From the sequence record OR924452: 64,000 nucleotides of DNA. One strand, 5' to 3'. The stretch's first letter is position 1. The number at the start of each line of letters is the position of its first letter. This stretch comes from Escherichia phage 241. The position numbers were made by a program, and so were the translations under genes. Positions 7,599-45,482 of this stretch are shown here, one piece after another. The notes beneath the pieces were generated by a model. That model was not told where the DNA came from and made no database searches. It saw only the letters and a list, made by a program, of their open reading frames with translations.

Positions 7599-7604
7599 AA
7601 TATT

Positions 7605-8251: not shown

Positions 8252-8257
8252 TTGACT

Positions 8258-8283: not shown

Positions 8284-8299
8284 ACTGAAGGACTATATC

Positions 8300-8994: not shown

Positions 8995-9006
8995 AATTAG
9001 AACAAC

Positions 9007-9035
9007 AAAGGGGCTTAATGCCCCTTTGTTTATTT
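9007..9035. terminator. Bidirectional terminator hairpin
   Basis: AAAGGGGCTTAATGCCCCTTTG with T-tracts on both sides, between convergent genes. Confidence 0.6.
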
Positions 9036-18090: not shown

Positions 18091-18101
18091 ATTCCCTTTG
18101 G

Positions 18102-18108
18102 CTAAATA
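18102..18108 (+). promoter_or_regulatory. Late-promoter-like CTAAATA motif upstream of gp6
   Basis: CTAAATATCTTCAA about 45 nt before the start codon; same core as the motifs before gp14, gp18, gp22 and the tailspike genes. Confidence 0.45.
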
Positions 18109-18148
18109 TCTTCAACACCATATTCAAACTCAGGTGATGGAGATTATC

Positions 18149-19930: not shown

Positions 19931-20768
19931 TAATGGTCACAATGGGGTTAAGTATGAAACCCCGTTGTTTTACCAAAACGATTTTCCTCTGTTCATCGAG
20001 TTCATGGACACGTTCTTTAATTGGCTGTATCGGCAGCAGGGCTTCACTCAAGAAGAAATTTTGGCATATCTGGCAGACACTTCGAGTTGGATGAATCCTG
20101 AGAGTGAAGATTCTCCTGTTAAACAACTCATAGATTTAAAGGCCGACAAAACGCCAGGCTCTGAAGCCAAAGATTATTTGTCAGATAAATTTTTGGTCAG
20201 AACATTTGAGAACATGATGGCTCTTGATGCCGAGACGCTGCTAGACGCTGATGGAAGGCCGTTGCTTTCTATTGAAGACAAGAACAAGCAGATAGACGAC
20301 TGGTATAATGATTTTGGGTTTCAACGAACTGTCGATAAATCATTTCAAGAATTTGGACATTTTATCCCAGTCGGTTCGGATTCTTTATTGACGGCCACGG
20401 GCGATACGTTCTCTGTTTATATTGAAGGAACTAAACGAAGAACTCTGGATCATCCGCGTTGGCTGAAATTGTTGAAACACATCTATAAAATACGTGGAAC
20501 AAAGAAAGCGATTGAATTGTTCTTTTGGATATATTTCGGTTGTCCAGTCAGCGTCTATTTTACGAAAGAAGACATAGGCGGTCTGGACGGAAATTTTGAA
20601 TGTGACGGCACGACAGGGATGCGTGATGATTACTATTATGATGAATACACTTATGTTATAGGAGTCCCAGGCGACGTATCTGATTTTGAAGGTGTGTTTG
20701 AGCGCGTCTTCCGTCAGCATTTCCATCCTGCTGGATTTACTGTATTCCTAGAAAGCACAAGGAGCTAA
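19911..20768 (+). CDS. Putative baseplate/structural protein
   Basis: Overlaps the gp6 stop (coupled); sits inside the structural operon. Confidence 0.5.
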   Translation, partial: AMSKDLNNGHNGVKYETPLFYQNDFPLFIEFMDTFFNWLYRQQGFTQEEILAYLADTSSWMNPESEDSPVKQLIDLKADKTPGSEAKDYLSDKFLVRTFENMMALDAETLLDADGRPLLSIEDKNKQIDDWYNDFGFQRTVDKSFQEFGHFIPVGSDSLLTATGDTFSVYIEGTKRRTLDHPRWLKLLKHIYKIRGTKKAIELFFWIYFGCPVSVYFTKEDIGGLDGNFECDGTTGMRDDYYYDEYTYVIGVPGDVSDFEGVFERVFRQHFHPAGFTVFLESTRS

Positions 20769-20770: not shown

Positions 20771-21961
20771 ATGGCCGATTTCCTGAGTCAATATACAGGT
20801 CAGCAGATAGATCAGATATTGGGTTCTGTTGACGACAAAGTAAGTAAAAACGACGTCATTGATGATTTTGAAGTCAGTGACCCATTGTTTCCGCCTTCTG
20901 CTCGCCTGACTTATGAGTTGAAAAGGTCTGTGGATACGATTAATGACACTCTGACCAACAAAGTTATAAGAACGGATAGTGGTGAACAGACAATCAACGG
21001 TAAGAAGACATTTAATGCGCTGTTGGTTACTAACGGGGGAATCCAAGTCCCCACTGGGAAATCTGTTTCAATCGCGGACGAACCAACCAACTCAACAGAC
21101 GGTGTCAACCTGAGTATGTTGAGGAAACATGGTGTCAGTGAAGACACCGCGCCAGATGGGTCTGGTTTGGCTGGGGAATTATTGACTTCCGGATATTACA
21201 AATTCAAACTGGATTTTAACAGATTGGCTGCGTATACGGAATTAACTCTCCCAACATCAGTTCCCGTGCAAACAGATTCTGGAGTTCGCACATGGTCAAT
21301 GACTGCATTTTTTAATGCGTTATTTGCCGACAACCGTTTTAACGGTTATGTAACGACGACCACGTATGATGCCGACATGTTGAGTCTGGAGTCTCAGCTT
21401 AACAATATCAACACGACGTTGAACGGAAAAGTCAACACGTCAACTTACAACACAAAAATGGCTTCGTTGGATTTGAGTATATCCAACATTAACACATCTT
21501 TGAGCAACAAGGTTGAGGTCAGCACATATAATACGAAGATGACTTCCTTGGACGGCAGTATCAGTTCTCTCACGACTGGTAAGGTCGATGTATCAACGTA
21601 TAATGCCAAAATGACCACAATTGATAACAGTTTGGGGAACGCTGTTTATCGCACCAAAACAAACTTGTCATCACTGACGGTATCGGCTTCTGGAACAACA
21701 GCTCTGCCAGACTTTGATTTGGTGAAACTTTGCCAGATATTGGTAACAGCACAATGGGGTACAGGAGATGTCGTAGACACATATCGAGTCACCATAACTC
21801 GAGATGGGACGATTAAGTCTGAGCTGCTGATCCAGAAAAGTACGAGCGGAACTGTGACGTTTACGGGTTCTGTAGTTGGTGGGAAACTGAGGATTTCTGT
21901 TGTCAATGCCAATACGACAACACCTTGCTCAGTCGATTATTCTATTACAGCATCTTTCTAA
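20771..21961 (+). CDS. Fiber-like structural protein with internal tandem repeats
   Basis: Four imperfect 24-27-aa repeats (VSTYNTKMxSLDxSIS...) in the middle of the protein. Confidence 0.6.
   Translation: MADFLSQYTGQQIDQILGSVDDKVSKNDVIDDFEVSDPLFPPSARLTYELKRSVDTINDTLTNKVIRTDSGEQTINGKKTFNALLVTNGGIQVPTGKSVSIADEPTNSTDGVNLSMLRKHGVSEDTAPDGSGLAGELLTSGYYKFKLDFNRLAAYTELTLPTSVPVQTDSGVRTWSMTAFFNALFADNRFNGYVTTTTYDADMLSLESQLNNINTTLNGKVNTSTYNTKMASLDLSISNINTSLSNKVEVSTYNTKMTSLDGSISSLTTGKVDVSTYNAKMTTIDNSLGNAVYRTKTNLSSLTVSASGTTALPDFDLVKLCQILVTAQWGTGDVVDTYRVTITRDGTIKSELLIQKSTSGTVTFTGSVVGGKLRISVVNANTTTPCSVDYSITASF
21355..21650 (+). repeat. In-frame tandem repeats (about 75 nt unit, 4 copies) inside the fiber gene
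   Basis: Repeated STYN(T/A)KM codon blocks visible at DNA and protein level. Confidence 0.6.
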
Positions 21962-22007: not shown

Positions 22008-25000
22008 ATGGCCAACAAACCAACACAGCCTCTTTTCCCTTTGGGTTTAGAAACTTCGGAGTCTTCTAACATAAAAGGCTTCAACAACTCCGGCACCATA
22101 GAGCATTCCCCTGGTGCAATATTGACGTTCCCTGAAGATACTGATGTTGCGGGTCTTCCATCTTCTGTGCGTTACAATCCTGTTAGTGATGAATTCGAAG
22201 GTTATTACGAAAATGGCGGGTGGCTGTCTTTGGGCGGCGGTGGAATACGCTGGGAAACGCTCCCATACGCTCCCTCTAGCAATTTGTTAGAAGGGCGCGG
22301 CTATCTCATTAATAACTCCACTGGGACTTCTACGGTGGTTCTTCCTTCCCCTACGCGCGTTGGTGACTCGGTTACAATTTGTGATGCCTATGGTAAATTC
22401 GCGACGTACCCATTGACTGTATCTCCAGCGGGAAATAACCTGTACGGCTCCACCGAAGATATGACGATATCCACCGATAACGTGTCGGCGACTTTCACTT
22501 GGTCTGGTGCTGAGCAGGGTTGGGTTGTTACATCTGGTGTTGGCCTAGGTCAAGGTCGTGTGTACAGTCGAGAGATTTTCACTCAAATTTTAGCATCTGA
22601 TACAAATGAAGTGACTCTCAACATCCCTCCGACAATTGTGGACGTGTACACTGATGGGAAACGCCTTACAGAATCCAAATATTCTTTAAATGGAAACGTA
22701 ATCACTTTCGACCCTTCTTTACCTGCTGGCACTGAATTGCAGGTAATAGAATATACTCCGATTCAGTTAGGTACTGGCGGCGGGGGTTCGGGCGCTTCTG
22801 CAATCACCTGGATTTACAATGGCGGATCCGCTATCGGCGGCGAAACCGAAATAACGCTAGACATCGTTGTAGATGATGTTCCGGCTATTGATATAAACGG
22901 GTCTCGTCAGTACAAAAATCTTGGATTCACGTTCGACCCATTGACGAGTAAAATCACTCTGACGCAAGAACTGGAACCAGAAGATGAAGTTGTTGTGGTT
23001 ATAAATGGGACACCAAACATTTATAACCAGATCGATCGTTCTTTACAGGAAGTTGCTCGCGCCTACAATTTTACAAATGCTCAAGTTATTTTGAGCAACG
23101 ATTATACTTCTGCGCTGGATAATAAAGTCGTTATTTATGATACAACATCCCAACGTTCTTGGGGGATTCCATCTGGAATTCCAGCAGGTTCTACAGTGGT
23201 TTCCGTCAATGGGGATCAACTGAAATACAAAAATGGATCAACTGAAACCACTGTTACATTGGTGAGTGTACCAGGTAGTGCAGAGAAGTTGAAGAACGAT
23301 CTGGCGTCGAACTCTGGCGCGGGCATGTTGAAAACTTCTAGAGGTGATACCGTAGAAGAAGAATTGACTTTTATTAATCAGAATATGGTCGTTCAAATTT
23401 CAGATTTCGCGAGCCTTAGAACTTTAGTGCCAGCCACAGCGGGCATCCGAGTCAAATTGAAAGGTTATTATTCTGGTTCTGAAATTGGTGGCGGAGAATT
23501 CATTTCCGTCGCTGGTGATGCTGTTGATGATGCTGGGATGATTGCTCGAGTGTCAAGCAGCTTCTATTGGAAGAGAATTATCGACAAACATATTACTCCT
23601 GGTATGTATGGCATCAAAGGGAATCTTCCAGAAGATCCGGCAGTGAAACTGAACGCTATGTTTACGGCTGCGGCTGCGGCTAACGCTTATGTCTTACTGA
23701 ACGATGTCGATACTCTGGTCTGTAAAAGCCCTGTCGTGATCCCAGCACATTCATTAGTGTACGGCAACAAGCGGACCATATTGAAACGTGATGCATCGTT
23801 GTCATATGCTAATGATTTCTTGACAATTATGAATGATTCATATGTCAAGGGGATCTATGTTGATGGTAGCCGTTTAGATTCTCAGACTCCGCTAGAAGCA
23901 GTTTTGGTGCGCATCGCTGGGAATGTGACTATCCATAAGAGCGAGATCCGAAACAATGCTGGCTATGGCGTTGTTGGTAACGCAGTCCCTGGCATTCGTA
24001 TCACCAAGAACATTTTTTCCAACTTCGCCAAAGGTTGTGTGGCTATGTTTGGCGACGGAACGGCGACGAGTGATGATCTGCAAATTAATGATAACAGATT
24101 CTTTAACCTGGGCGCGGGAACCATTTATGTTGGCGGTTACTCAAACTTCCTTGTCGACAAAAACGTCGGAAGAGGCACTTACGTGGGTTCTCCAGGAAAC
24201 CGTCTGTATGTTGTGACCAATACCAACGGGACTATCACCCAAAGCGCTGGGCCAGATTTTGGGGCGCTGAAAACGGGTATGTTCTTTGTATTGCCTGGTG
24301 GTTCTGAACATATGATAACGGCAGTCAACAGCCTTACAAGTGTGACAGTAACCCCAGCGCCTCCGTCGAATGCAACGGTTCGTGCAATTGCTGGGACAGG
24401 GGATCTTCTGGGCATCCAATCATGCTCCTACGGCACCATCAGCCGTAACAACCTGACCGATTGTGTGACTTACGGAACTGGTGGAGGCACGATGGAGGGG
24501 AGCACTCTGGGGTGCAATTATGTCACTTGGGAAGACAACTTCATCCGCAACACAGGTAAGAACGGAATCAACGTCGGGCAATCAGGCGCTGGGGTCGCCA
24601 CGTGTTCAATCCTGAGGAACACTCTGATACAGGTTGGTAACGGCGGTCAGGGCGTCGGCCCAGCGTATCTTCTGCCTTGGTTCGATACGGTAGGTATTGC
24701 TCTGTATCAGGGAAATCCAGGTTATATGGCGAATATGGACGTCAGTGATAACAACGTCTCTACATGGTCTGGCGATCTGAATGACGGCGCTGCTTGGTTT
24801 GGTATGAGCGGTTGTACGGAAGCCACTGTGACTTGTACAGGCAACAAATCTTCTGGTTATTCCGACGGCTATGTTCGTGGAGATATATTAGAAGTCACGT
24901 TGACAGGTTATGGTACAGGGGCGGCTGCGACTTCATTCGTTAGTGATGGTGAGTCTATACAGATAACCGTTCAAACAGGTACTTCACCAACAGCTTCTCC

Positions 25001-25181
25001 TTATTTTTCAGTGCGGAAGGCGATCCGCACCCGCCATCAACCGATGATAACGGCGCAGATCGTCACCACAACTGGGAACATGTCTCATTGTTGGGGCATG
25101 CAATCTAGTACAGCAGGAAACTGGATGGTGGGACAGAATACAACTCCTTCAGGGGTCACGACGTATTACGCAAAAGGGTAA
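22008..25181 (+). CDS. Tailspike protein (long form, multi-domain N-terminus, beta-helix-like C-terminal region)
   Basis: 1057 aa; N-terminal region shares a module with the 747-aa tailspike (RSLQEVARAYNF... versus RSIQEIARSANV...); Gly/Asn-rich repetitive C-terminal region. Confidence 0.75.
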   Translation: MANKPTQPLFPLGLETSESSNIKGFNNSGTIEHSPGAILTFPEDTDVAGLPSSVRYNPVSDEFEGYYENGGWLSLGGGGIRWETLPYAPSSNLLEGRGYLINNSTGTSTVVLPSPTRVGDSVTICDAYGKFATYPLTVSPAGNNLYGSTEDMTISTDNVSATFTWSGAEQGWVVTSGVGLGQGRVYSREIFTQILASDTNEVTLNIPPTIVDVYTDGKRLTESKYSLNGNVITFDPSLPAGTELQVIEYTPIQLGTGGGGSGASAITWIYNGGSAIGGETEITLDIVVDDVPAIDINGSRQYKNLGFTFDPLTSKITLTQELEPEDEVVVVINGTPNIYNQIDRSLQEVARAYNFTNAQVILSNDYTSALDNKVVIYDTTSQRSWGIPSGIPAGSTVVSVNGDQLKYKNGSTETTVTLVSVPGSAEKLKNDLASNSGAGMLKTSRGDTVEEELTFINQNMVVQISDFASLRTLVPATAGIRVKLKGYYSGSEIGGGEFISVAGDAVDDAGMIARVSSSFYWKRIIDKHITPGMYGIKGNLPEDPAVKLNAMFTAAAAANAYVLLNDVDTLVCKSPVVIPAHSLVYGNKRTILKRDASLSYANDFLTIMNDSYVKGIYVDGSRLDSQTPLEAVLVRIAGNVTIHKSEIRNNAGYGVVGNAVPGIRITKNIFSNFAKGCVAMFGDGTATSDDLQINDNRFFNLGAGTIYVGGYSNFLVDKNVGRGTYVGSPGNRLYVVTNTNGTITQSAGPDFGALKTGMFFVLPGGSEHMITAVNSLTSVTVTPAPPSNATVRAIAGTGDLLGIQSCSYGTISRNNLTDCVTYGTGGGTMEGSTLGCNYVTWEDNFIRNTGKNGINVGQSGAGVATCSILRNTLIQVGNGGQGVGPAYLLPWFDTVGIALYQGNPGYMANMDVSDNNVSTWSGDLNDGAAWFGMSGCTEATVTCTGNKSSGYSDGYVRGDILEVTLTGYGTGAAATSFVSDGESIQITVQTGTSPTASPYFSVRKAIRTRHQPMITAQIVTTTGNMSHCWGMQSSTAGNWMVGQNTTPSGVTTYYAKG

Positions 25182-25231: not shown

Positions 25232-27235
25232 ATGATTTCTCAATTCAATCAGCCACACGGCTCCACTTCAATATTTGTTAACAAACAATCTATCGCTCTG
25301 AATTTCGGTGTCACCAAAGACGAAGTTGTTTATTTCGCTGCTGGCATTGACCTTAGCGGATACAAAGTAATCTATGATGAATCGACTCAACGGGCTTATT
25401 CTCTTCCAGCTGGGATTGTTTCAGGAACTACTGCCATCAGTCTGGACGAAAAAGCCATTTTGACCCATTCGGCTGGCTCTGTTGATCTTGGAGAACTGGC
25501 TGTGCAACGCGGAGAGTTTGTTACTGTACCTGGTTCTTTTAATTTCGGCCATACCATTAATGTGAAAAATGAACTTCTTGTTCACGATGATGAAAAATAT
25601 CGATGGGATGGTTCTTTGCCAAAGGTAGTTGCCGCTGGTTCTACACCCGATAACTCAGGCGGTGTTGGCACAGGCGCGTGGGTTAGCGTTGGGGATGCGT
25701 CATTAAGGAATGAGTTAGCAAGTCCTTCAGGATCATCACTTTCAGGTCATTCAAATGGCCTTTCGGTAGCTGAAAACCTGAATAACCTCTTAGCAAAAGC
25801 ACAATTCATCACACCAGAGCAATTTTACAGCAATCATCCTGGTGAAACTGACTGGGCTGTGATGATTAACGAGGCATATTCCTATGCTCGCGATCATAAT
25901 AGTTCTGTGTTGCTTGCTAATGACTACCACACTGCGTCAACAATTGTTCACTTAGACGGTGTTACTGTTATTTGTACCGGGCGTATTATTGCATCGCCAA
26001 CAGGAACATATTCATACACCACCGCATTAGGTAATGAAGAGGAGGCTGCTTATGTAATTACTACTGAAAATGGTGTGTTTAACAATGCAAAATCTTCATC
26101 TCTTTACGGTCTAACATTGACATATACAGACAATAGAGAACCATCAGGATATACCGACCCTCACATACTAGCTAAAGGCGTTGTCATTACTGATACGGCT
26201 AATGTTTACATAAACAACCTGCAAACATTTGGGTTCTTAAATGGCGGTGTCGATGTTGGTGGAATTTCTGGTAATGGGTTTGAGATTGTAATAAATAAAT
26301 GTTTAGCCTGGATTTACGCATGGACGGATTCGGAGAAGATAGGATTCCGATGCAACGTTACAGACTCTACATTCTATGATGTCGTAACTGTAGCATATGG
26401 AATTGGAATTCATAATGTTAAAGGTGGTGGAAACGTCTATTTTAACGCGCACCCATGGGGGTATCCTTTAACCGCCGCTAATCTATACCCAAACAGACAG
26501 TGTAAAATTCAATTTCTGTTAACAGGGGGTGGCACAACTTTCTTCAGGCCGTATGCCGATACAATCACAAAATTAGACAGCAGTCAAAACGCTAGTCGGG
26601 CCAATGGTGGTGTTGGGTTTTACATCGACAACTGGAGAAATAAAATTATCGCAGCAGAGGTGGCGATACATAATGATGAGATTAGCACTGGAATGTCATT
26701 AGCTTACCTGGTAGGCGATGCCTCGCGTAATGAAATTGAATTCACAAACATAAACAACACATCGAAACTTGGGAATGAAAGAGTTTCATATGATTCAGGA
26801 TATCAAACCGCTTTATTTACAAACATTGTCAGAATTCCTGAGTATAACGCAGGTAATTTAAGCAACCTTACAGGAAGCATATCATTCAATGGTACAGGAG
26901 TTACTTCTTCTGGCACGTACAGTTTACGCAGAAGTGGTGAGTATATAGACATTCTTTTAACTATAGGAGTGACTTCAATATCAAGCCCATCCGGACCATT
27001 ATCAATCACGCTACCACGTGGTCTTGTGTGTAGATTTGGGCCATCAGCAGAGCCTGAGCAGACTTCGTGCTTTGGTAACATCAGTTCAATCAATATAGGT
27101 GTAATTGCAGTTCTAAACGGAAGCTCTATAGAGTTCTATTACAAGACAGCAAATGGGGCAAGGGTCCTTATTAATGCAGCTGGAGTATCAGTCGGGACTC
27201 TTGAGTTATTTTTAAGAGGTAAAATTTCGAATTAA
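25232..27235 (+). CDS. Tailspike protein (short N-terminal anchor type)
   Basis: 667 aa; first 160 aa are homologous to the N-terminus of the 826-aa tailspike; divergent C-terminal domain. Confidence 0.75.
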   Translation: MISQFNQPHGSTSIFVNKQSIALNFGVTKDEVVYFAAGIDLSGYKVIYDESTQRAYSLPAGIVSGTTAISLDEKAILTHSAGSVDLGELAVQRGEFVTVPGSFNFGHTINVKNELLVHDDEKYRWDGSLPKVVAAGSTPDNSGGVGTGAWVSVGDASLRNELASPSGSSLSGHSNGLSVAENLNNLLAKAQFITPEQFYSNHPGETDWAVMINEAYSYARDHNSSVLLANDYHTASTIVHLDGVTVICTGRIIASPTGTYSYTTALGNEEEAAYVITTENGVFNNAKSSSLYGLTLTYTDNREPSGYTDPHILAKGVVITDTANVYINNLQTFGFLNGGVDVGGISGNGFEIVINKCLAWIYAWTDSEKIGFRCNVTDSTFYDVVTVAYGIGIHNVKGGGNVYFNAHPWGYPLTAANLYPNRQCKIQFLLTGGGTTFFRPYADTITKLDSSQNASRANGGVGFYIDNWRNKIIAAEVAIHNDEISTGMSLAYLVGDASRNEIEFTNINNTSKLGNERVSYDSGYQTALFTNIVRIPEYNAGNLSNLTGSISFNGTGVTSSGTYSLRRSGEYIDILLTIGVTSISSPSGPLSITLPRGLVCRFGPSAEPEQTSCFGNISSINIGVIAVLNGSSIEFYYKTANGARVLINAAGVSVGTLELFLRGKISN

Positions 27236-27403: not shown

Positions 27404-27441
27404 ACTAAATACCCCATATTGGCAAATCCTTTATGGGGTAT
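27404..27441 (+). promoter_or_regulatory. Late-promoter-like motif plus hairpin (CTAAATACCCCAT ... ATGGGGTATT)
   Basis: Same element as at 25191; the track's start at 27433 lies inside the 3' arm of the hairpin. Confidence 0.5.
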
Positions 27442-27447
27442 TTTCAA

Positions 27448-29676
27448 ATGACCAGAAATGTAGAAGAATTATTCGGCGGCGTAGTCACAGCTCCCCACCA
27501 GATTCCTTTCACTTATAAATCAAGTGTCGGTGGAGAAACTTTCATTTCTCTACCTTTCTATCCTGTCACTGGTGTTGTCACAATTAACGGCGGCATGCAA
27601 GTTCCGTTAGACAACTTCGAGATAGACGGGAATACGTTAAACCTCGGGCGCGCATTGTCTAAAGATGACGTGGTTTATTGCCTGTTCGACAAAATCCTTT
27701 CACCAGAAGATACTTCTAAAGGCATTCGAATATACAAATTTCAAGCCGTGGGTGGGGAAACTGAATTCACGCCTGACTTTACTTCTTATGGTGTACAGTC
27801 TCTTTATATCGGTGGCGAGTACAAAACCCCAGATATAGAATATTCATACAACAGTACGACTGGGAAAGTTTCCCTACAAACTGCTCTGACTGCAGGGGTG
27901 TGGGTTGTTGCGGAGATGTCTGTTAAACAACCGAATATCAGTCCGGCGTTCGATCGCAGTATCCAAGAAATTGCCCGTTCGGCTAACGTAAAAGACTCTG
28001 AAGTCATTGTCAGCACTGATACCATATCTTTACTCGACGACAAGAAAGTTGTTTATGATTCAGCAGCGCAGGTTATTTATGGTTTACCAACTATTCCTGA
28101 TGGTTCAGTGATTTCTTCTGTATCTGATGGAAAATTGACTTATAATCCAGGTGATGTGCAGGTTGATCTGTTACCATTACCAGATTCTGCCCAGGCAGTT
28201 AAATTATTCTATTTGCAACCAAGTGGCGCAGAAAATATTAAAGTTTCCAGTGGCGACACAGTACAAGATATTCTGAATAATATCAATAAACACCGTGTTG
28301 TAAGCAGCATTTCAGAACTTTTGAATATATCTCCAACAGAAACGTCAGTTGTATTCGTGGCATCTTTCCATCCATCAACCAATTACGGGGGTGGATTCTT
28401 CCGTTGGGATCCGTCTGGAAACAAGGCAACCCACAATGGTGGTACGATTATTGATCCTGATAAAACGTTTCCGACTTGGGACAGCGCAGGTAAAACTTCT
28501 TGGTTTACCGCAAGCGGGACGGGTACTGGTGTTTGGCGTCGGCAAGACGTGATGGGTCATTACCGTGCTGAAGATTTCGGTGCACTCCCTTGGAACGTCG
28601 GGGACGCGCATGACAGTACCAAAGAATTCCAACAAGTGGCTAATGTGGCTTATCGGGGCGGTTGCTGGAGATGGACAGGTCGCCATCGCATTACGAGTTA
28701 TATCGATATCCCCAATAAACAGACTTTTGGTTCATACGCCCAAATGACTTCTGTTTATTCTGAATTATTCCAGCCTAGCAATTTCCAGGGGGTGCACGTT
28801 ATTTCTGATCCTTCTTTAGCGCGTTCTGTGCAAAATGCAGTCTTCTTTGATGCTGCGACCGGAGAAGCATTCCGTTGTGGGGAAGGTGCATCCCCGACCG
28901 ATTTTTTGGTGTACGGAAGAGGGTTTACAACTACTGGGATGGATTTGGCAACATCATTACCTTCGGCGGCGTCGTATTGTGACACCCAAGCATTCCGTCA
29001 TGGGAAGGCTATTAACGTGCGAAATGTTACTGTTGCGCTTATGAAGTACGCATTGGATTCTAATCCATGGGATGCCAGCAAAGGTGATTATTATTCCACA
29101 ACGGATCATATGACGATTTTGTATTGTTATTGCATTAGTCGTGTACCAACTGGCCAGGATATAACATTTAACACCAAGCATATCAATATGCGTGCATATG
29201 TAAACCAGATTGGCGATTATGGATTGGCAGTCCGAAATGTGGTGTTTATCGGTGGATCCATAGAAGGATATAACACTTCAACATTCTTACGATCCAGTAC
29301 TCAACTTTCTTTCAAAGGCACATATTTTGAAACGGGTGACACGTCATTCAATGGTACAGTATTCAGCCTTGTTGGTTGGTGTACTCTTAACTTTGAAGAA
29401 TGTCTTGTTTATTTGAACAACACCACAAACTTCGTGTCTTCTGGTGGTTCTGGGCAATCTGCTGGCGTCTTGGGTCTAACGATTAAATCTCAAGGTAACG
29501 TGTGGCGTAAAACTGACGCGGGGACAACCACAGTGTTTGCAGTTGACCCAGTCACTAATAAACAAGCCTTAGTTGGATCCGAAATATTGAATGCTGCGAG
29601 TGGGGCAACTATCGCATATTGGGCTGGTGCCGTCCCACCTGGCACATACACGGCTCCAATCAGTGTTGCATTTTAA
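27448..29676 (+). CDS. Tailspike protein (long form)
   Basis: Start moved to the ATG at 27448 (MTRNVEEL) by analogy with the 25232 gene; N-terminal modules shared with the 1057-aa tailspike. Confidence 0.7.
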   Translation: MTRNVEELFGGVVTAPHQIPFTYKSSVGGETFISLPFYPVTGVVTINGGMQVPLDNFEIDGNTLNLGRALSKDDVVYCLFDKILSPEDTSKGIRIYKFQAVGGETEFTPDFTSYGVQSLYIGGEYKTPDIEYSYNSTTGKVSLQTALTAGVWVVAEMSVKQPNISPAFDRSIQEIARSANVKDSEVIVSTDTISLLDDKKVVYDSAAQVIYGLPTIPDGSVISSVSDGKLTYNPGDVQVDLLPLPDSAQAVKLFYLQPSGAENIKVSSGDTVQDILNNINKHRVVSSISELLNISPTETSVVFVASFHPSTNYGGGFFRWDPSGNKATHNGGTIIDPDKTFPTWDSAGKTSWFTASGTGTGVWRRQDVMGHYRAEDFGALPWNVGDAHDSTKEFQQVANVAYRGGCWRWTGRHRITSYIDIPNKQTFGSYAQMTSVYSELFQPSNFQGVHVISDPSLARSVQNAVFFDAATGEAFRCGEGASPTDFLVYGRGFTTTGMDLATSLPSAASYCDTQAFRHGKAINVRNVTVALMKYALDSNPWDASKGDYYSTTDHMTILYCYCISRVPTGQDITFNTKHINMRAYVNQIGDYGLAVRNVVFIGGSIEGYNTSTFLRSSTQLSFKGTYFETGDTSFNGTVFSLVGWCTLNFEECLVYLNNTTNFVSSGGSGQSAGVLGLTIKSQGNVWRKTDAGTTTVFAVDPVTNKQALVGSEILNAASGATIAYWAGAVPPGTYTAPISVAF

Positions 29677-29723: not shown

Positions 29724-32204
29724 ATGAATCCGCAATTTGCTCAACCGAAAGGTTCTACTTCAAAAGAAACGAACAAAGATAGCATCGCCCGTAAATTTGG
29801 GTGCAAAAAGTCGGAAGTCGTTTATGCCAAAGCGGGACAGTCTTTGTCTGGTTATAAAGTGATCTACGATAAGGTGTCTCAACGTGCCTACGCTCTCCCT
29901 TCTAACATTGGTGCTGTAACGGTCACCAGTTTAGTTGACGGCATCCTCACGCACTCTGGAGGCACTGTAGATTTGGGTGCGCTGGCGGTGTTGCGTGAGG
30001 AATACGTCATTCTGATAGAAAATTTCACTTCCGGATTTACGATTCGTGTCAAGAACGAAGTCGTGAGCGATGGAGTGAATTTATACCGCTGGGGTGGTGG
30101 TTTACCAAAGACTGTCAATGCTGGTGAAGATCTAGACTCCACTGGAGGGATTAGCGTGGGGGCGTGGATTAGCGCGGGCGTTGCTTCATTGAGGAACGAT
30201 CTTGCTGCTAATGATGGGTTTAAATTTATTGGGCAATGTCCAGATATAGCAACATTAAGGACAATTGAACCTGGCGTCAATGGTCAAAGAATTATATTAC
30301 GGCAACATACGGCTGGAACTGGTCTTGGCGGCGGTTCATTTAGGGCTGTAGTTGATGGCACCGGATATGAAGACGATAACGGAGTGGTTATTAAAACAAC
30401 TGGCGGTGCCGCCTGGCTACGCCTCAACGCAGATAGAGTTAATCCGTTTATGTTTGGGGCAACAGGTGGTGTGGACGACACTGTGGCTGTTCAGGCCAGC
30501 GTAGATAGTGGTCGAGCCACCGAACTAACTGCGCCATTCAACGTCACTTCCATTAAGCTGAAGAAAAAATCTGCAAGTATCTACGGGTCAGGTATGCACA
30601 TCTCAAGGCTAGTGCAAAAACCAGGGGTGGCTGGTGACTGTGTGGTTATTGAAGATACCTGCTCGCTTATTAAATTGGATAATTTCGGTATTTACGGAAC
30701 TGGTGCACAGCAAGATACTGCATTCACTGCGGGAACGCGTGGATTAGTTGTTCCAACCCCCACCGGACTTTCTACAAACTACCCATTTAACACATCAGCA
30801 GACCCACGAAGGGATTTGTGTATCAACAACGTGCATATTGCTGGGTTTGATGAGTATGGACTTAAAATCGAAAATGGAAACTTTTCAGTATCAACGACAA
30901 ACCTTCTTATTAACCACATTAATCAAGTTGGTGCGTATTGCGCAACAACAGACTGGACTTGGACAAATATCCAGATAAATACCTGTGGTAAGGAGTGTCT
31001 TGTCTTAGATGGCGCTGGCAACGCCCGTATTATTGGTGCTAAACTTATTTGGGCTAACTGGCAACCATATGCTGCTTCAGGTAGTTACCCTGGATTGAAG
31101 ATAAACAATTGTCAAAACATTACTATGAGTGCTACAGAGGTTCAGGACTGCGGTTCTGATGGCATAATCTTTAAAGACAGTTATTCTATTTCAATTTCAG
31201 GACTAAACACGAACAGAAACAGCATAAACAGCAACTACTCATATAACAACTGCGTATTTGATAGTTGCGACGTTACAATTGATGGGTTCGTTGGTCTTAA
31301 CTATTCTTCAAACTCAGGTTCGGGGATACCTTCCAGTGCCGCTAATTTTAGATTCCTGTCTTCAGATTGTACCGTAGTCGTAAACGGAAATGTAGAGTCA
31401 GAGTATCTCGGTATCTTGTTCCGTGGTGATAACAATATTATTCAGCCAACGAATTCAGACCTTAAAATAAATGGATTGATTAATTACGATAAAACAAGCA
31501 TTACATTTCAAAATGTAATGCCTTCATTCGATGGTGTTAGTACCACTCCTGTATTCGTTCCCGCCCCATCAATTATAGGCCAGGCAAACGGACTTCGTTT
31601 GTCACAAGGAAATAAAGACAAAATCAGGTATACAACATCCAGAGTTCCAGCTGGTGGCGTGTCACTATCTGCAATTCTAATACCAACAATAACTGGCGCT
31701 GAAACGTTTAATATTATTGTTCTGGGTACTGGATTTGGCTCTACCAACAATAGCCTCTACTTTCAGTTAAATGTCGACTCATCAGGAAATCAAAGCGTTG
31801 CATTACTTATCAGTGGCGATGGTCAAACACAAGTTCTTTCTGGGGTGATTCCGGATGAATTTAAGATACAAAGTGGAGTTCCGTACCATTTTGCATTGGG
31901 TGCTGCTCCTGGGAGATTCTGGTGGAGTATATTAAATATTCAAACAGGTTCACGTATAAGAAGGGCATTTAGACGTGATTACTTAAGCGCTCCATTTAAC
32001 AGCTTATTTGGTAATGATGTTTCTATAAATTTCTTCTCAGGTGAAGGTTCATCAGATGAAGCATGCTCTGGGATTGGGGCAAAAGTTTATGCTGGAGCAT
32101 TCAGTTCTGAATCTGATTATTGCGCAAGCAGATACTACAGTTTGTACAATCCTATAGACCCATCTAAAATGTTTAGCTATAGAACACTTGATGGCTCCAT
32201 ATAA
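29724..32204 (+). CDS. Tailspike protein (short N-terminal anchor type)
   Basis: 826 aa; AGGAG RBS; N-terminal 160 aa paralogous to the 667-aa tailspike; beta-helix-like repeats. Confidence 0.75.
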   Translation: MNPQFAQPKGSTSKETNKDSIARKFGCKKSEVVYAKAGQSLSGYKVIYDKVSQRAYALPSNIGAVTVTSLVDGILTHSGGTVDLGALAVLREEYVILIENFTSGFTIRVKNEVVSDGVNLYRWGGGLPKTVNAGEDLDSTGGISVGAWISAGVASLRNDLAANDGFKFIGQCPDIATLRTIEPGVNGQRIILRQHTAGTGLGGGSFRAVVDGTGYEDDNGVVIKTTGGAAWLRLNADRVNPFMFGATGGVDDTVAVQASVDSGRATELTAPFNVTSIKLKKKSASIYGSGMHISRLVQKPGVAGDCVVIEDTCSLIKLDNFGIYGTGAQQDTAFTAGTRGLVVPTPTGLSTNYPFNTSADPRRDLCINNVHIAGFDEYGLKIENGNFSVSTTNLLINHINQVGAYCATTDWTWTNIQINTCGKECLVLDGAGNARIIGAKLIWANWQPYAASGSYPGLKINNCQNITMSATEVQDCGSDGIIFKDSYSISISGLNTNRNSINSNYSYNNCVFDSCDVTIDGFVGLNYSSNSGSGIPSSAANFRFLSSDCTVVVNGNVESEYLGILFRGDNNIIQPTNSDLKINGLINYDKTSITFQNVMPSFDGVSTTPVFVPAPSIIGQANGLRLSQGNKDKIRYTTSRVPAGGVSLSAILIPTITGAETFNIIVLGTGFGSTNNSLYFQLNVDSSGNQSVALLISGDGQTQVLSGVIPDEFKIQSGVPYHFALGAAPGRFWWSILNIQTGSRIRRAFRRDYLSAPFNSLFGNDVSINFFSGEGSSDEACSGIGAKVYAGAFSSESDYCASRYYSLYNPIDPSKMFSYRTLDGSI

Positions 32205-32207
32205 CAA

Positions 32208-32236
32208 AAACCCCGCTTCAGCGGGGTTTTTATTTC
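32208..32236 (+). terminator. Rho-independent terminator
   Basis: CCCCGCTTCAGCGGGG hairpin plus TTTTTATTTCT. Confidence 0.8.
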
Positions 32237-32296
32237 TATCTGTCTGTTGGCTGTATACTAAATATCTCTATAAATGGCACTCGATGGAGCATCAAA

Positions 32297-35200
32297 ATGC
32301 AATCTACAAATCTAAACCGTCGCCCGTATTGGGACGACTGGAATCCTGGAAAACGGTTTTCACGGATTCTTTTTCGCCCGATGCCTATTAAAGTTCAGAC
32401 TCGTGAACTAAACCAGATGCAGACTATTCTGCAAGATCAGATTGAAAAGCTGGGAAACCATTTGTTCAAAGATGGATCTATGGTTATCCCTGGTGGTCTG
32501 ACGATTACCAACGCCGCTGTATCTATGAAATTCACTCTGGCTGGCGGTACTGAGTTTACTGATCTGGAAGGGATTACTGAACTTTATGTTCTGGGAAAAG
32601 ACAATAATGCCAAAGCGCGTGTGCTATCTCTTGAACGTGATCTGTCTGCTCCGGATACGATGTTGGCCATCCTTGAAATGACAGAAGTGGGTAATGCAGA
32701 TGGCTTCCACGTCAACGACAATCTGTATTTCCAAACCTATGACGTCAATGACAACTTCATTCGTATTGGTTATGGTATCGCAGCTGCGGTGACTGGTTCT
32801 ATCGTCGCTCGTATGACGAAGGGCGTTTACTTCATTCGTGGGATGTTCCTTGATGTTGATGACGCGACTCTCATCGTCGATAAAACTTCAAACACTTCTT
32901 CCCATCGCGTCGGGTTTAAAGTCACTGAAACCATCGTGACTGAATCTGAAGACGAATCCCTTTATTCAAACGCTCAGGGAACGATTAACTCCAAAGCCCC
33001 AGGCGCTCATCGTCTTCGAATAGATCTGGTCTTATCTCGATTTGATTATGATGCTGTGGTTGAAGACTTTGTTGAACTGGCCAAAGTTCGTGATGGTAAA
33101 ATCCAGTCTATGGTGACTCAGTCCACCTATAATATTCTGGAAGACACGTTGGCTCAACGGACGTATGAAACCAACGGCGATTACAACGTTTCAACGCATC
33201 AGATCGACATCCGCGAACACCTGAAAGTCAATAACAATGGTGGTGTATTCAATGCTGCTGATGGCGGCGACGAAAGTAAATTCGTGTCTGTAATGAAACC
33301 AGGTATTTCCTATGTTCGCGGTCGTCGTATCGAAAACGTCGGGGAAGAGTTGGTGATCGTTGACAAGGCACGGGATACCGATGTCCTGAATAACACGCCT
33401 GTCGCAGTTGCTACAGGGAATTATCTGGTCACCAAGAACTCCAAAGGTGTTCCAGTAATATCTCGCACTGTGCGATACAAGTTATTGAACGCATCTGGCG
33501 CTGCTCAAGCCACGGCGTTGTGTATATCCGCTGAACGCAATTCAACTGAATTCCGTCTGTACATGCGTGATTTGGTTGTGACTGGGGACGCGTCCACTAT
33601 CACCAAAGTGTCTTATGAAGAAAGTGGTATCACCATGTTCTCTGCTGAACTGGAATCCAACCAGTTTAACCAGAGTTCTATGGTAGACTTGATCTTCTCT
33701 CTTCCGGTCTTCGGTGTTAAAACATTAGCGCCAACAGGTTCCGTGGATATCAACTACACAGTCCTCAGAACTTATAAGGTGACGCTAGACAGCAGCGGTT
33801 CTGGTTCTATTTCAGCTCCGCTGGGATATAGTTTCTCTCCTGAATTTTCGTTGTATTCTTCTGCGAAATCCGATGGTTCAGAAGCGCAATTTGATATCTC
33901 TGGCTCTTTGTCACTGACTGGTTCTCCGGTGGGTTCGGCTTTGCAGATTTCCCTGGGTAGCGGTAATGCTAACCAGTCAATCAATTTGCTGGCACTGATG
34001 ATCCGCACTACGGCCACGATCAAAACGAAGACGATAACTGAAACCACAGAGTCTGTGACTTTTACTTCCCAAACCAGTAGACCTCTGGCAAATCACGACG
34101 GCTGGAAATTGGTATCTGTCAAAAATGATACTGGCGCGGACGTGACTTCGAGCTTCACCCTCGACGGTGGCCAACGCGATGCGGGATATTACAAGGCTAA
34201 TCTGTTATCCACCGCTGGAGCCATTTCAGGGACGTATACGGTGGTGTATCAATACTTCGCGCATAGTTCGGGGGATTTCTTCTCAGCGGATTCGTATACT
34301 TCAATGGATTACAAAGATATCCCGAATTATACATCCTCCACATCAGGGGCGGTGTATGGTTTGGCCGATAGCCTTGATTTCCGTCCGAAAATTACCAACG
34401 GGACATCCGACACTGATATGGTTCGCCCGAATACGGCTGTCATCCTGGACACAGAGTATTATTTGCCTCGTATCGACGCGATTTATCTGGCAGATAATGG
34501 CGTGTTTGGTGTAGCCCGTGGCATCAGTTCCAACAACCTGGCGTCCCCAGCAATACCTGCAAACTCCATGCGTTTGTATGAACTGTTGATTCCCCCATAC
34601 ACGCCGAATATCGATGATATACAAATTCGCACCATCGATAACCGTCGTTATACGATGCGTGATATCGGTAAACTGGAAACGCGTATTTCCAACGTTGAAT
34701 ACTACACCTCTCTGTCGCAGCTGGAATCTTCGGCGATGACACAACAGGTATTTGATCCAATCACGGGTAATCCGCGATTCAAAAACGGTATCGCCGCCGA
34801 TCCATTCAAAGACTTCCGTCTTATTGATGATCTGTCTGAAGATTGGATGGGATCTATCGATACGGAAAATGGACGTTTGCGTCCGTTTGTTCAACAGAAC
34901 GCCGTTGACATGACTCCAGTAGGCTGGAACAAAGTGATGGATGGTATGGTGGTTTGTAACTACACGCCTGAAATCTCCGTGAACCAAGAATACGCGACGA
35001 CGACGATCAACGTTAACCCGTATGCTGTATTCAACTGGGAAGGTTTCTTGAAGATTAACCCGACCACGGATTACTGGTTTGAAAACTACTATGTCGCCCC
35101 GCGTGTTATCAATGAAACGATCAACACTCGTGGTACTGTACAAGAAGGTTCGGTGTACGGGACGTGGCGTACTGTTTCTGTTTCTGATCGTGTTTGGGAG

Positions 35201-37135
35201 CCGCATGGCGCTGGTGGTGTGTGGTGGGGATACCGCTATCGCACGACTGTTTCTGCCCGTGATGTCACCACATACACATACACGGACAAAACAACCACGA
35301 CCATGACTGGCGAACAGATTGTGGAAACGCAGGTTATCCCATACATGCGCGAAATTGATATTTCTTTCGACGCTTCTGGGTTGCGACCTTTCACTCGCAT
35401 GTATGCATTCTTCTCAGGTCGTGATGTGAATCTGTATTGCAAGCCGAATGGTGGTAATTTTGGTGACCCAATCACCACTGATGCCAATGGCGCAGTCAAA
35501 GGCGTGTTCCGCGTTCCTCAGAACGATACGATCAAGTTCAACACAGGTGACAACGTGTTCCGCTTGACGGATAGCCCCGTTGACAGTAAATCTGCGGATG
35601 ATACGCTGACTAATGCTGAAATTGTTCACAAATCTTTCGGTAAGAAACAAGGGATTCAAAAGACCTTTGTCAATACTCGAGTTCTGGGTTATACCGCAAG
35701 CACCAGCACCGAAACCAGCACTTCTGAAGTTGTGGTCGACCAATGGCGTGATCCAATTGCCCAATCGTTTATGGTGGCAACTAAGATCGGTGGTGAATAT
35801 ATCGAAGGCGTGGAAGTATTCTTCTCCACCAAGTCACGTGATGTTCCGATCACCCTGGAAATTCGCGAGATGGAGAATGGCTTACCATCCCATACCGTCA
35901 TAACTCGTAAAACTTTGAACCCATCTGAGGTGACGATCTCTACAGACTCGTCTGGCGGTACGAAGTTCACCTTCGATTATCCGGTATACTTGCAAGCATC
36001 GACTGAGTTTGCTATTGTTCTGTTGGCGAATACTCAGGATTACAACGCGTATATCGCGGAAATGGGCAAGAAAAACCTTCTGTCCAACGAATATATCGCC
36101 AAACAACCGTATACAGGGGTGTTCTTCACTTCTTCAAACGGTTCTACATGGTCTCCCAACCAGATGGCAGATATGAAGTTCCGTGTTTATCGTTGTAACT
36201 TTGCTGCTGGTCAGAACGTTGTAACATTTGATCCGAAACTTGGACCGAAACAACGTCCGCTGGGGTTGAACACTCTCAACTGTGTGAGCGGGTCTTCTGT
36301 CGTGACCGTGTTTGCACCTGGTCATGGTTTGGTTGCTGGGAACAATGTCACTCTGTCTGAATTGACAGGCGGTTGTGGCTTTACTCCTGAACAACTTAAC
36401 AAAACGTTTACTGTGACAGATGCGAGCTATACTTCATTCAAGATTGACGTCGGTTCAGCAGCAGACAGCAACGGGCAAATCGGCGGGGATAATGCTTCGT
36501 TCTTGGGCAATTATCTGGTTGATATGTTCTATGCGAGTGTTACAAATTCAGCTCTGGAAGGTTCGATTCTGAAATTGGAATACCGTTATCGCGATGCCAC
36601 TTCAAATTCTATGTCTGATTGGGCTGAGTTTGAAACTGACACTGACGTGGCGTTGCCGACTGAAGGGATCTATCGTCAGGTTGGGGATTTCCAGATCCGA
36701 GCCACCATGACGCGCAGTGAAAACAACGTGTACACCGCTCCAATGATTGATGGCGATGACCTGAGCGTAATCTTCAACTCATACGGCGTGGATCCATTTG
36801 AAGATGTCTTCAAATATGTGACAAAAGACATCGGATTTGATAACCCATGTTCGACTGTGAAGTTGTTCTTTGGTGCAATGCTCCCATCTCAGTCTTCTAT
36901 GAAGGTGCAGGTGAAACTTCTTAGAGCAGGTCAGGAGATGGATAGTGTGGCTTGGGAAGATGTTACTCCAACGTCGCCTCTGGTCAACGACGGTTCTACA
37001 TTCTTTGAATATGAATACGACAAGACTGTGGCGAGCAATAACCCGTTTGTTGGCCTGAAAGTCCGAGCGCTTGTACGGGGGAACCGCGTTGCTCCTCCAT
37101 CATTCAAAGACTTCCGTCTTATTGCTCTGGCATAA
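32297..37135 (+). CDS. Giant virion structural protein (1612 aa), probably baseplate or tail associated
   Basis: Single uninterrupted 4.8-kb ORF in the structural operon, between the tailspikes and the neck genes. Confidence 0.8.
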   Translation: MQSTNLNRRPYWDDWNPGKRFSRILFRPMPIKVQTRELNQMQTILQDQIEKLGNHLFKDGSMVIPGGLTITNAAVSMKFTLAGGTEFTDLEGITELYVLGKDNNAKARVLSLERDLSAPDTMLAILEMTEVGNADGFHVNDNLYFQTYDVNDNFIRIGYGIAAAVTGSIVARMTKGVYFIRGMFLDVDDATLIVDKTSNTSSHRVGFKVTETIVTESEDESLYSNAQGTINSKAPGAHRLRIDLVLSRFDYDAVVEDFVELAKVRDGKIQSMVTQSTYNILEDTLAQRTYETNGDYNVSTHQIDIREHLKVNNNGGVFNAADGGDESKFVSVMKPGISYVRGRRIENVGEELVIVDKARDTDVLNNTPVAVATGNYLVTKNSKGVPVISRTVRYKLLNASGAAQATALCISAERNSTEFRLYMRDLVVTGDASTITKVSYEESGITMFSAELESNQFNQSSMVDLIFSLPVFGVKTLAPTGSVDINYTVLRTYKVTLDSSGSGSISAPLGYSFSPEFSLYSSAKSDGSEAQFDISGSLSLTGSPVGSALQISLGSGNANQSINLLALMIRTTATIKTKTITETTESVTFTSQTSRPLANHDGWKLVSVKNDTGADVTSSFTLDGGQRDAGYYKANLLSTAGAISGTYTVVYQYFAHSSGDFFSADSYTSMDYKDIPNYTSSTSGAVYGLADSLDFRPKITNGTSDTDMVRPNTAVILDTEYYLPRIDAIYLADNGVFGVARGISSNNLASPAIPANSMRLYELLIPPYTPNIDDIQIRTIDNRRYTMRDIGKLETRISNVEYYTSLSQLESSAMTQQVFDPITGNPRFKNGIAADPFKDFRLIDDLSEDWMGSIDTENGRLRPFVQQNAVDMTPVGWNKVMDGMVVCNYTPEISVNQEYATTTINVNPYAVFNWEGFLKINPTTDYWFENYYVAPRVINETINTRGTVQEGSVYGTWRTVSVSDRVWEPHGAGGVWWGYRYRTTVSARDVTTYTYTDKTTTTMTGEQIVETQVIPYMREIDISFDASGLRPFTRMYAFFSGRDVNLYCKPNGGNFGDPITTDANGAVKGVFRVPQNDTIKFNTGDNVFRLTDSPVDSKSADDTLTNAEIVHKSFGKKQGIQKTFVNTRVLGYTASTSTETSTSEVVVDQWRDPIAQSFMVATKIGGEYIEGVEVFFSTKSRDVPITLEIREMENGLPSHTVITRKTLNPSEVTISTDSSGGTKFTFDYPVYLQASTEFAIVLLANTQDYNAYIAEMGKKNLLSNEYIAKQPYTGVFFTSSNGSTWSPNQMADMKFRVYRCNFAAGQNVVTFDPKLGPKQRPLGLNTLNCVSGSSVVTVFAPGHGLVAGNNVTLSELTGGCGFTPEQLNKTFTVTDASYTSFKIDVGSAADSNGQIGGDNASFLGNYLVDMFYASVTNSALEGSILKLEYRYRDATSNSMSDWAEFETDTDVALPTEGIYRQVGDFQIRATMTRSENNVYTAPMIDGDDLSVIFNSYGVDPFEDVFKYVTKDIGFDNPCSTVKLFFGAMLPSQSSMKVQVKLLRAGQEMDSVAWEDVTPTSPLVNDGSTFFEYEYDKTVASNNPFVGLKVRALVRGNRVAPPSFKDFRLIALA

Positions 37136-37187: not shown

Positions 37188-37436
37188 ATGCGTGGAATGA
37201 AAGTACAGGGGCACGCATCCATGTTGAGAAGCAGTTCTTGTCCAGGCGCGATCATTTGTACTGATCATGCTGCAGGTATGGCTGCATTGCAAGCCCGTCA
37301 ACGCAACGAAACCCGTGAAGCCACCATTGTTGAACAATCAAACCAGATATCGAATCTGGAGGCGACGATCAAAATGATGGCTGAAAAGTTGGGGATAGAA
37401 ATCCCCGAAGGAGGTCAGAATGGCGACGCAAGCTGA
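37188..37436 (+). CDS. Small coiled-coil protein (position equivalent to T4 wac)
   Basis: AGAGGA RBS before the ATG at 37188; heptad-like sequence. Confidence 0.4.
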   Translation: MRGMKVQGHASMLRSSSCPGAIICTDHAAGMAALQARQRNETREATIVEQSNQISNLEATIKMMAEKLGIEIPEGGQNGDAS

Positions 37437-37761
37437 AAGATCTGGGCTTGATATCCGTGGTATCTTGACTGCTGTCGTGGCTTCTGCATTGGTCTCGGCG
37501 GCGTCGTTCCTTTGGTTTATGGGTGGGATGGAAACACGCGTGAATGTATTGGAGCGAGATTCTAATAAAATGGATCAGGTCCTTCAAAAGGTGAATGACA
37601 TGAGTGAGCGCATGGCGATCATGAATACAGACCTCGCATATGTCAAACAAAATATGGCTGAGTTAAAACTCAATAGCAGCAGCCTATCAGACGATGTCCG
37701 CACATTGCGGATTACTGTATCTGATTTGCAGCAACGAGGGAATAACAATGGCCGTCAATAA
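37420..37761 (+). CDS. Small coiled-coil protein with N-terminal TM segment
   Basis: GGAGG RBS; hydrophobic ILTAVVASALVSAASFLWF then coiled-coil-like region. Confidence 0.45.
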   Translation: MATQAERSGLDIRGILTAVVASALVSAASFLWFMGGMETRVNVLERDSNKMDQVLQKVNDMSERMAIMNTDLAYVKQNMAELKLNSSSLSDDVRTLRITVSDLQQRGNNNGRQ

Positions 37762-45023: not shown

Positions 45024-45482
45024 ATGATATACGCATACAAAATTGAAATGGTTTGTAATGGAAAGGTCTACATCGGTGTGACCAATGACCCACAACGAAG
45101 ATATGATCAGCATTTTGCGAATGCCTTTCATCATGGAGTCCAAAGTGAATTGTATGACGCCATGCGTAAGTATGGAACATCTGGATTTACTTTCGTTGTA
45201 ATTGCTCAGACCGATGAAGTCCATAAATGGGAATTAGAGAAGCAACTCATCGCTCAATATAATTCTTATGAGATGGGTTACAACATGAATAAAGGCGGTA
45301 ATGATGGAAGTCATATGCTGGGTAAAACTGCAGCAAAATTGACATCCACAGGTGAACACATTGGTCTTGTTTCTCTCATAGATCCCCGTTGGGAATTGTG
45401 TGAAATCGAACCTGTTTCAAGTAATGTTCACCATGGTTTCGATCTTTCTTCTATGAAGATTAAAAGATTGACGACTAATTAG
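45024..45482 (+). CDS. GIY-YIG homing endonuclease (Seg-like), free-standing
   Basis: N-terminal MIYAYKIEMVCNGKVYIGVTNDPQRRYDQH carries the GIY...YIG...R signature; inserted between the tail sheath and tail tube genes. Confidence 0.8.
   Translation: MIYAYKIEMVCNGKVYIGVTNDPQRRYDQHFANAFHHGVQSELYDAMRKYGTSGFTFVVIAQTDEVHKWELEKQLIAQYNSYEMGYNMNKGGNDGSHMLGKTAAKLTSTGEHIGLVSLIDPRWELCEIEPVSSNVHHGFDLSSMKIKRLTTN

Follow-up and report, generated by a model that had tools for sequence, protein, structure and literature searches.

The VriC gene and its product

The DNA analyzed here is a window of 64,000 nt from Escherichia phage 241 (OR924452), and coordinates are positions in that window unless another phage is named. 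Four tailspike genes lie ahead of a single open reading frame (ORF) of 4.8 kb, which is followed by two small ORFs of 82 and 113 aa and by the neck gene gp13. The product of the large ORF is VriC/VrlC, which represents the Ackermannviridae in a family of DUF4815 baseplate proteins known as "tripod" or "pyramid"; gp106 of Listeria phage A511 and the tripod protein of Staphylococcus phage 812 belong to it too. The gene and the signals preceding it are:

32206..32231, plus strand: intrinsic-terminator-like hairpin with an 11-bp stem and a T-run, found by a terminator scan; it ends the last tailspike gene just 5′ of VriC
32269..32276, plus strand: TATAAATG site, similar to the T4-type late promoter TATAAATA
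32286..32289, plus strand: ribosome-binding site GGAG, 7 nt before the VriC ATG, read from the sequence
32297..37135, plus strand: VriC/VrlC gene with an ATG start, encoding a DUF4815/tripod-family baseplate protein of 1612 aa (177.5 kDa, pI 4.9)

The ORF list and its translation show no internal stop over the 1612 codons. More than 100 database proteins of 1570–1720 aa align across 100% of the VriC length with 31–98% identity, so the frame is genuine and no artefact. Escherichia phage Sa157lw has a GenBank protein with 100% identity. No internal repeats were found by self-BLAST. An earlier reading of this DNA, based on the sequence only, had described one intact frame between the tailspike set and the neck genes and had taken its product for a large multi-domain structural protein of the tail-end apparatus, and both descriptions are borne out; the undetected frameshift that the sequence-only reading had considered does not apply. 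In some Kuttervirus records the gene is split, into five pieces in Salmonella phage 38 and two in vB_Sen_ST2.

By megablast, the gene belongs to Kuttervirus (Ackermannviridae), with 98.5% nucleotide identity to Vi01_169c ("conserved phage associated protein") and 92–98% identity to the genes of ~130 other Salmonella and E. coli phages. At the protein level, identity is 83–99% across phages of Salmonella, E. coli, Klebsiella, and Dickeya (~84–85% in those of the last two hosts), and no hypervariable block is observed. Kuttervirus records often label the gene "VrlC" or "virulence-associated VriC protein". The "virulence" label stems from homology to the vrl locus of Dichelobacter nodosus, with no assay behind it.

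The protein is a major virion component in a close relative. Mass spectrometry of CsCl-purified Sajous1 virions recorded 311 spectra for gp140, the VriC orthologue, second only to the major capsid protein, and the gp140 gene is 93.2% identical in nucleotides to the one described here. Absence from virions, which would have spoken against a structural protein, therefore does not apply.

We take the TATAAATG site 5′ of VriC to be a late promoter, from knowledge of T4-type late promoters. Because sites of this type are not enriched in the window (6 versus 4.5 expected by chance), this is a call that we only infer.

A long antisense ORF is present inside the VriC gene (34343..35206, minus strand, 287 aa), and it is also open in Vi01 and in Taipeivirus KpS110. 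In codon-shuffled versions of the VriC gene, stop-free antisense runs measure 207 ± 58 codons and 3% reach the observed 356. The antisense translation has a high Arg content and diverges more quickly than VriC itself. On the strength of these controls and of this composition and divergence, we rejected it as a real gene and regard it as a by-product of codon usage.

Homology to the phage 812 tripod and domain map

The Pfam family DUF4815 (PF16075) matches VriC in three stretches, with 203.5 bits against a cut-off of 30 (E = 6.3e-60), and the same family is precomputed on all of the 120 listed VriC homologues. PHROGs returned only families of unknown function. A phmmer search against all PDB sequences gave a sole real match, a 1152-aa chain named DUF4815 protein/ORF65 and present in 15 entries (E = 3.7e-51). 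What these 15 entries show is the Staphylococcus phage 812 baseplate (EMBO J 2026, PMC13433997). The gene for this chain lies, in phage 812, behind the genes for the 1019-aa arm scaffold and the 173-aa arm segment; next come a 52-aa ORF and the genes for the receptor-binding protein RBP1 (640 aa), the coupler (124 aa), and RBP2 (458 aa). Since this gene order and these lengths fit, the 1152-aa chain is the tripod protein gp119, twelve trimers of which are found per phage 812 baseplate (PMC13433997).

A family hidden Markov model (HMM) was built from 43 full-length VriC-type proteins and compared with the intact Kayvirus tripod of phage RuSa1. The alignment consists of four collinear blocks:

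HMM 3–60: RuSa1 tripod residues 2–59 (block 1)
HMM 171–374: RuSa1 tripod residues 72–252 (block 2)
HMM 713–1326: RuSa1 tripod residues 383–951 (block 3)
HMM 1422–1619: RuSa1 tripod residues 959–1145 (block 4)

The blocks span both proteins, and VriC and the tripod are therefore homologous from end to end. The ~460 additional residues of VriC fall into three insertions, at about aa 61–170, 375–712, and 1327–1421. The annotation of 812F1, a host-range mutant of phage 812, divides the tripod gene into two ORFs, Gp122 and Gp123, which are separated near ~9740–9775 by a 1-nt deletion in a poly-A tract relative to RuSa1, either a homopolymer sequencing error or a true frameshift.

Two overlapping halves of VriC were modeled as monomers with AlphaFold2, using the 43-sequence alignment. 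The model of aa 1–720 has a mean predicted local distance difference test score (pLDDT) of 84.4 and that of aa 690–1612 a mean of 76.4, with low confidence only at aa 932–1008 and 1122–1152. In Foldseek searches of the PDB, phage 812 baseplate chains rank first for both halves. The C-terminal part matches 9euf_0 over 918 columns (E = 5.6e-35, TMq 0.49), and the N-terminal part matches 9eui_Q (E = 4.2e-13), with no other match below 1e-3. The C-terminal model is far closer to the pre-contraction conformer of the tripod (TMq 0.49) than to the post-contraction one (TMq 0.21). As modeled, VriC thus shares the tripod fold. The predicted structure retains beta-sandwich domains resembling carbohydrate-binding modules (CBM16/61) and the lectin-like domain of Cwp84, and its long helices (aa 32–56, 281–293, and 787–815) are, we infer, the counterparts of the three "spine" helices of the tripod. 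Together, the HMM alignment and the models define the following map, all on the plus strand:

32297..32509 (aa 1–71): conserved N-terminus with the first long helix, aligned to tripod residues 2–69
32510..32803 (aa 72–169): insertion 1, all-beta, the lowest conservation within the N-terminal half
32804..33406 (aa 170–370): conserved beta domain and second helix, tripod residues 72–268
33407..34396 (aa 371–700): insertion 2, ~330 aa versus ~130 in the tripod; beta-sandwich domains, confident model
34397..35086 (aa 701–930): core with the highest conservation; holds the third long helix plus the C-terminal half of DUF4815
35087..35326 (aa 931–1010): long beta-hairpin region, low pLDDT, gappy and poorly conserved
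35327..35761 (aa 1011–1155): CBM-like beta-sandwich, then a Ser/Thr-rich low-confidence linker (aa 1122–1152)
35762..36235 (aa 1156–1313): most widely shared module, phrog_5986
36236..36559 (aa 1314–1421): insertion 3, every sequence match below Pfam thresholds
36560..37132 (aa 1422–1612): C-terminal beta-sandwich domains, tripod residues 959–1145 (anchor/hook region)

The conserved core at aa 701–930 opens the long block aligned to tripod residues 383–951. The hairpin region that follows it is possibly a "fiber" element that depends on trimerization. The module at aa 1156–1313, presumably the equivalent of the lectin-like "leg" domain of the tripod, is the only part of VriC that matches VrlC of Wolbachia phage WO and some rhizobiophage tail proteins. 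For insertion 2, Foldseek against the PDB gave no significant fold match besides the tripod. Insertion 3 is probably a beta-barrel of the endosialidase type. A Pfam match to Phage_spike_2 at aa 1351–1421 was set aside, as it lies below the cut-off (E = 0.05) and homologues give a sub-threshold End_beta_barrel match there instead.

The tripod gp119 of phage 812 (Kayvirus, Herelleviridae; PDB 9EUF, 9EUI, 9EUJ, 9TIC, and others; PMC13433997) thus has in common with VriC the DUF4815 family, three long helices among beta-rich domains, and the CBM16/CBM61-like and Cwp84 lectin-like domains. Likewise, its gene comes after wedge genes and has a very small ORF behind it. The two proteins differ in length (1612 aa in VriC versus 1152), share only 19–26% identity, and belong to phages of different hosts, that of VriC being Gram-negative. 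Unlike in phage 812, no recognizable arm scaffold or arm segment genes are found near VriC, and four tailspike genes stand between the wedge genes and VriC.

The same family, called VrlC in the literature, includes Listeria A511 gp106 (the "pyramid") and, in Bacillus phages, Deep-Blue gp176 and Vp4 gp120, whose lectin-like and CBM domains are predicted to touch the cell surface. In contrast to VriC, the proteins of this group measure ~1150–1175 aa, lack the three insertions, and serve phages of Gram-positive hosts; P100/A511-type Listeria phages match VriC over aa 676–1312 in tblastn. DUF4815 homologues of T4-like cyanophages (S-RIM50 R290704_098, 2476 aa) and of the rhizobiophages PhiM9 and PhiM12 match VriC aa 2–1300 with ~26–33% identity. 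They are encoded in a baseplate gene block ahead of the neck gene and are abundant in the PhiM12 proteome; compared with VriC they are larger or have otherwise extended C-termini, and only ~65–75% of the query is covered.

Overall, tblastn found the VriC family in 1708 of 50,697 phage records, in T4-like cyanophages, Ackermannviridae, Vibrio phages, rhizobiophages, Wolbachia WO, and Herelleviridae of Staphylococcus, Bacillus, Listeria, and Enterococcus. The groups listed in this search do not include T4-like coliphages. This agrees with a 2015 study that reported VrlC in cyanophages, Viuna-like phages, and Gram-positive phages and its absence from T4 and its closest relatives (PMC4621102), and the earlier observation that the protein has no obvious T4 counterpart holds.

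The gene order of the window matches the Vi01 map. Upstream of VriC, the following genes are recognized:

18098–19930: gp6-like wedge gene, matched to the Vi01 map
19884–20768: PF23786 wedge subunit, 294 aa, matched to the Vi01 map
20771–21961, plus strand: 396-aa "putative tail fibre", just ahead of the gene for tailspike protein 4 (TSP4)
22008–25181, 25232–27235, 27433–29676, and 29724–32204: four tailspike genes

Enterobacterial Ackermannviridae carry their tailspike genes after the wedge genes and ahead of VriC. Vibrio phage vB_VpaS_SD25 is a member of the Ackermannviridae without a four-tailspike cluster, and hence this cluster is not found in every member of the family. There (5695–16203) the VriC homologue follows the gp6-like and PF23786 wedge genes, with two small ORFs (312 and 241 aa) in between. 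In cyanophage S-RIM50, the 2476-aa homologue comes after gp8. This synteny in SD25 and S-RIM50 places the VriC gene in a conserved baseplate block. The succession of wedge genes, tripod homologue, and very small ORF is observed in Kuttervirus, Taipeivirus, Vibrio Ackermannviridae, S-RIM50, and Kayvirus.

The VriC gene and its family assignment were already known. A 2024 review of the Ackermannviridae notes that VriC resembles in silico the baseplate proteins of A511 and phi812 and that it may make up the "prong-like structures" (PMC11721090). The 2015 study had made the same proposal and drawn the link to these baseplate proteins (PMC4621102). We refine this existing hypothesis rather than report a discovery; new here are the confirmation of the predicted fold by comparison with the recently solved tripod and the map of the domains and the three insertions.

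Proposed position and role of VriC in the baseplate

From this homology, VriC is very probably a peripheral baseplate protein of the tripod family. It is most likely an appendage that would bind the cell surface, rather than a hub or a carrier of the four tailspikes, both of which had been suggested from the size of the frame. The idea of a baseplate hub finds no counterpart in our searches: Pfam, PHROGs, PDB sequence, and fold searches gave no match of the gp5, gp27, or gp29 type and no OB-fold or beta-helix, and the solved homologue is peripheral.

A scaffold or adaptor carrying the tailspikes would offer VriC as the docking site for the N-terminal anchor domain of TSP4. In every enterobacterial member of the Ackermannviridae the VriC gene adjoins the tailspike cluster, no baseplate protein is yet known to receive the TSP4 anchor domain, and early immunolocalization in A511, as cited in PMC4621102, was interpreted as showing gp108, the receptor-binding protein, attached to the VrlC homologue. 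However, TSP4 has its own baseplate anchor domain, and the TSP1–4 complex forms in vitro without VriC, on the N-terminal XD domains of TSP4 and TSP2 (PMC8825819). The tripods of phage 812 are themselves peripheral cargo hanging off the baseplate arms and carry nothing; they are fixed to the arm scaffold, and so, separately, are the receptor-binding proteins. VriC homologues are also equally conserved where no tailspike cluster exists, as in SD25, the cyanophages, and the Herelleviridae. We therefore regard a tailspike scaffold as improbable, and this part of the sequence-only reading is not upheld.

Even less probable is a primary receptor-binding protein or polysaccharide depolymerase that determines host range in the manner of a fifth tailspike. 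Such a role would fit the annotations "virulence-associated protein", "tail fiber protein", and "adsorption associated tail protein", an earlier association of VriC with host range reported in one paper, the lectin- and CBM-like domains, and a possible endosialidase-type barrel. Yet the endosialidase likeness concerns a non-catalytic barrel and stays below the Pfam threshold, and no beta-helix, beta-propeller, or other catalytic domain is found by Pfam, PDB, or fold searches. A Tail_spike_N/XD-type N-terminus combined with a beta-helix or beta-propeller is absent in VriC and present in the four upstream genes. The conservation of VriC across the phages of four hosts likewise contrasts with true specificity determinants, which are swapped.

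VriC might instead be a purely architectural part, a builder of a double-layer or "skirt" that serves assembly or the stability of the contracted baseplate without touching a receptor. The presence of vrlC correlates with large double-ringed baseplates (PMC4621102), tripod–tripod contacts stabilize the post-contraction baseplate of phage 812, and VriC is abundant in virions. Against this, several CBM- and lectin-type domains persist between very distant relatives and more lectin-like insertions have been acquired, while in phages 812 and A511 the density beneath the tripods extends to the cell wall. We consider an architectural role without receptor contact unlikely.

The best overall explanation, which we hold to be likely, is that VriC forms trimers of the tripod family at the baseplate periphery, where they would bind glycans and rearrange on contraction. 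The A511 homologue has been immunolocalized to the baseplate (PMC4621102). VriC homotrimers would hang from the periphery and might be the "prong-like" structures seen by electron microscopy. The swappable tailspikes, not VriC, would read and digest the variable O or K antigen. Once the polysaccharide is cleared, the CBM, lectin, and beta-barrel domains of VriC could bind a conserved surface glycan, and VriC could then reorient during baseplate transformation, as the phage 812 tripods do, and lock the contracted baseplate onto the cell. For the receptor-binding and switch role taken by itself, the chances appear to us about even.

In this mechanism, VriC would fill the role of the short tail fibers of T4 (gp12); the Ackermannviridae lack T4 gp9–gp12 (PMC11721090). 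The parallel with gp12 is a functional analogy only: the proposed shared role is that of a trimeric, baseplate-bound secondary binder of a conserved surface structure that would hold the baseplate during contraction. T4 gp12 is a thin triple beta-helical fiber, and no sequence or fold relationship between it and VriC was detected.

Several points weigh against the placement and role proposed for VriC. The docking loops for tripods are provided in phage 812 by the arm scaffold gp117 and in A511 by gp105, and sequence and profile comparisons with the phage 812 and A511 chains revealed no homologue of an arm scaffold or arm segment in the neighboring baseplate proteins (294 and 396 aa). The targets proposed for the tripod, wall glycans and peptidoglycan, are not directly transferable to Gram-negative hosts. 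The VriC trimer and its conformational switch are extrapolated from a homologue with about 23–26% identity, and the CBM-like folds are generic jelly-rolls, which are no proof of sugar binding. The 396-aa coiled-coil protein (20771–21961) could equally form the prongs. The 2024 review gives the function of VriC as unknown (PMC11721090), and no Ackermannviridae baseplate structure was found in the literature or the PDB.

In the search for a docking partner of VriC, neither neighbor showed a likeness in sequence or profile to the arm scaffold or arm segment of phage 812. The 294-aa protein is a PF23786 wedge subunit. The 396-aa protein, searched as a single sequence and as a 14-sequence profile, gives only weak matches, to the coiled coil of the P22 gp26 needle and to the N-terminus of TP901-1 BPP. 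Coiled-coil segments recur along it (consensus KVxTSTYNTKMxSLD), its C-terminal beta domain is conserved, and its family is restricted to enterobacterial Ackermannviridae (139 proteins with at least 50% identity).

Ackermannviridae are widely used for biocontrol and engineered detection, and their tailspikes are well studied. VriC is their largest tail protein, among the most abundant, and conserved across the family. The residue-level tie to the phage 812 tripod provides a structural template and testable domains (the insertions, the lectin-like leg, and the C-terminal sandwiches) for the search for a secondary receptor. More tentatively, the tripod machine, described in 2026 for Herelleviridae of Gram-positive hosts, may be an ancient, portable baseplate module that also operates in the Ackermannviridae of Gram-negative hosts and in cyanophages; VriC trimers would then be the prongs and, by means of their extra lectin-type insertions with the endosialidase-like barrel among them, would act as a secondary irreversible receptor binder and contraction trigger in place of the gp9–gp12 periphery of T4. 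If this is true, VriC alone would offer a way to find the conserved secondary receptor used by a therapeutically important phage family.

Neighboring genes

The tailspike cluster upstream of VriC is mosaic. Its best matches (PS5, Matapan, and Marshall) span only 82–83% of it, with ~97% identity, whereas VriC is closest to Sa157lw and Vi01 (98.5%). This difference suggests a recombination boundary near the terminator at 32206–32231.

Two small ORFs follow VriC:

37188..37436, plus strand: 82-aa ORF directly 3′ of VriC, annotated as "virion structural protein" in Vi01 and KpS110
37420–37761, plus strand: 113-aa ORF, N-terminal segment hydrophobic and next region coiled-coil-like; overlaps with the adjoining genes at their ends

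Counterparts of the first are located 3′ of the tripod homologues in other lineages:

Kayvirus, 4919–5077: 52 aa
SD25, 14917–15120: 67 aa
cyanophage, 15425–15876: 78/72 aa

In all four lineages these ORFs of 52–82 aa occupy the corresponding position, are similarly small, and have a charged helical C-terminus; comparison of the 82-aa ORF with those of Kayvirus (52 aa), the Vibrio phage (67 aa), and the cyanophage (78/72 aa) gave no sequence match. In the A511 gp106 group, a putative chaperone of 63–64 aa follows the homologue, also without sequence similarity to the 82-aa ORF; for the equivalent small protein of A511, gp107, a function as chaperone or binding element has been suggested. Only the 113-aa ORF resembles its SD25 counterpart, weakly (E = 3e-5), and its position and size are conserved as well.

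By comparison with Vi01, the genes 3′ of the 113-aa ORF are those for the gp13/gp14 neck, gp15, terminase, sheath, and tube. Between the sheath and tube genes lies a 152-aa ORF (45024–45482, plus strand), whose counterpart in Vi01 is annotated as a GIY-YIG homing endonuclease. Vibrio phage SD25 carries a different, larger homing endonuclease beside its tube gene, on the opposite strand.

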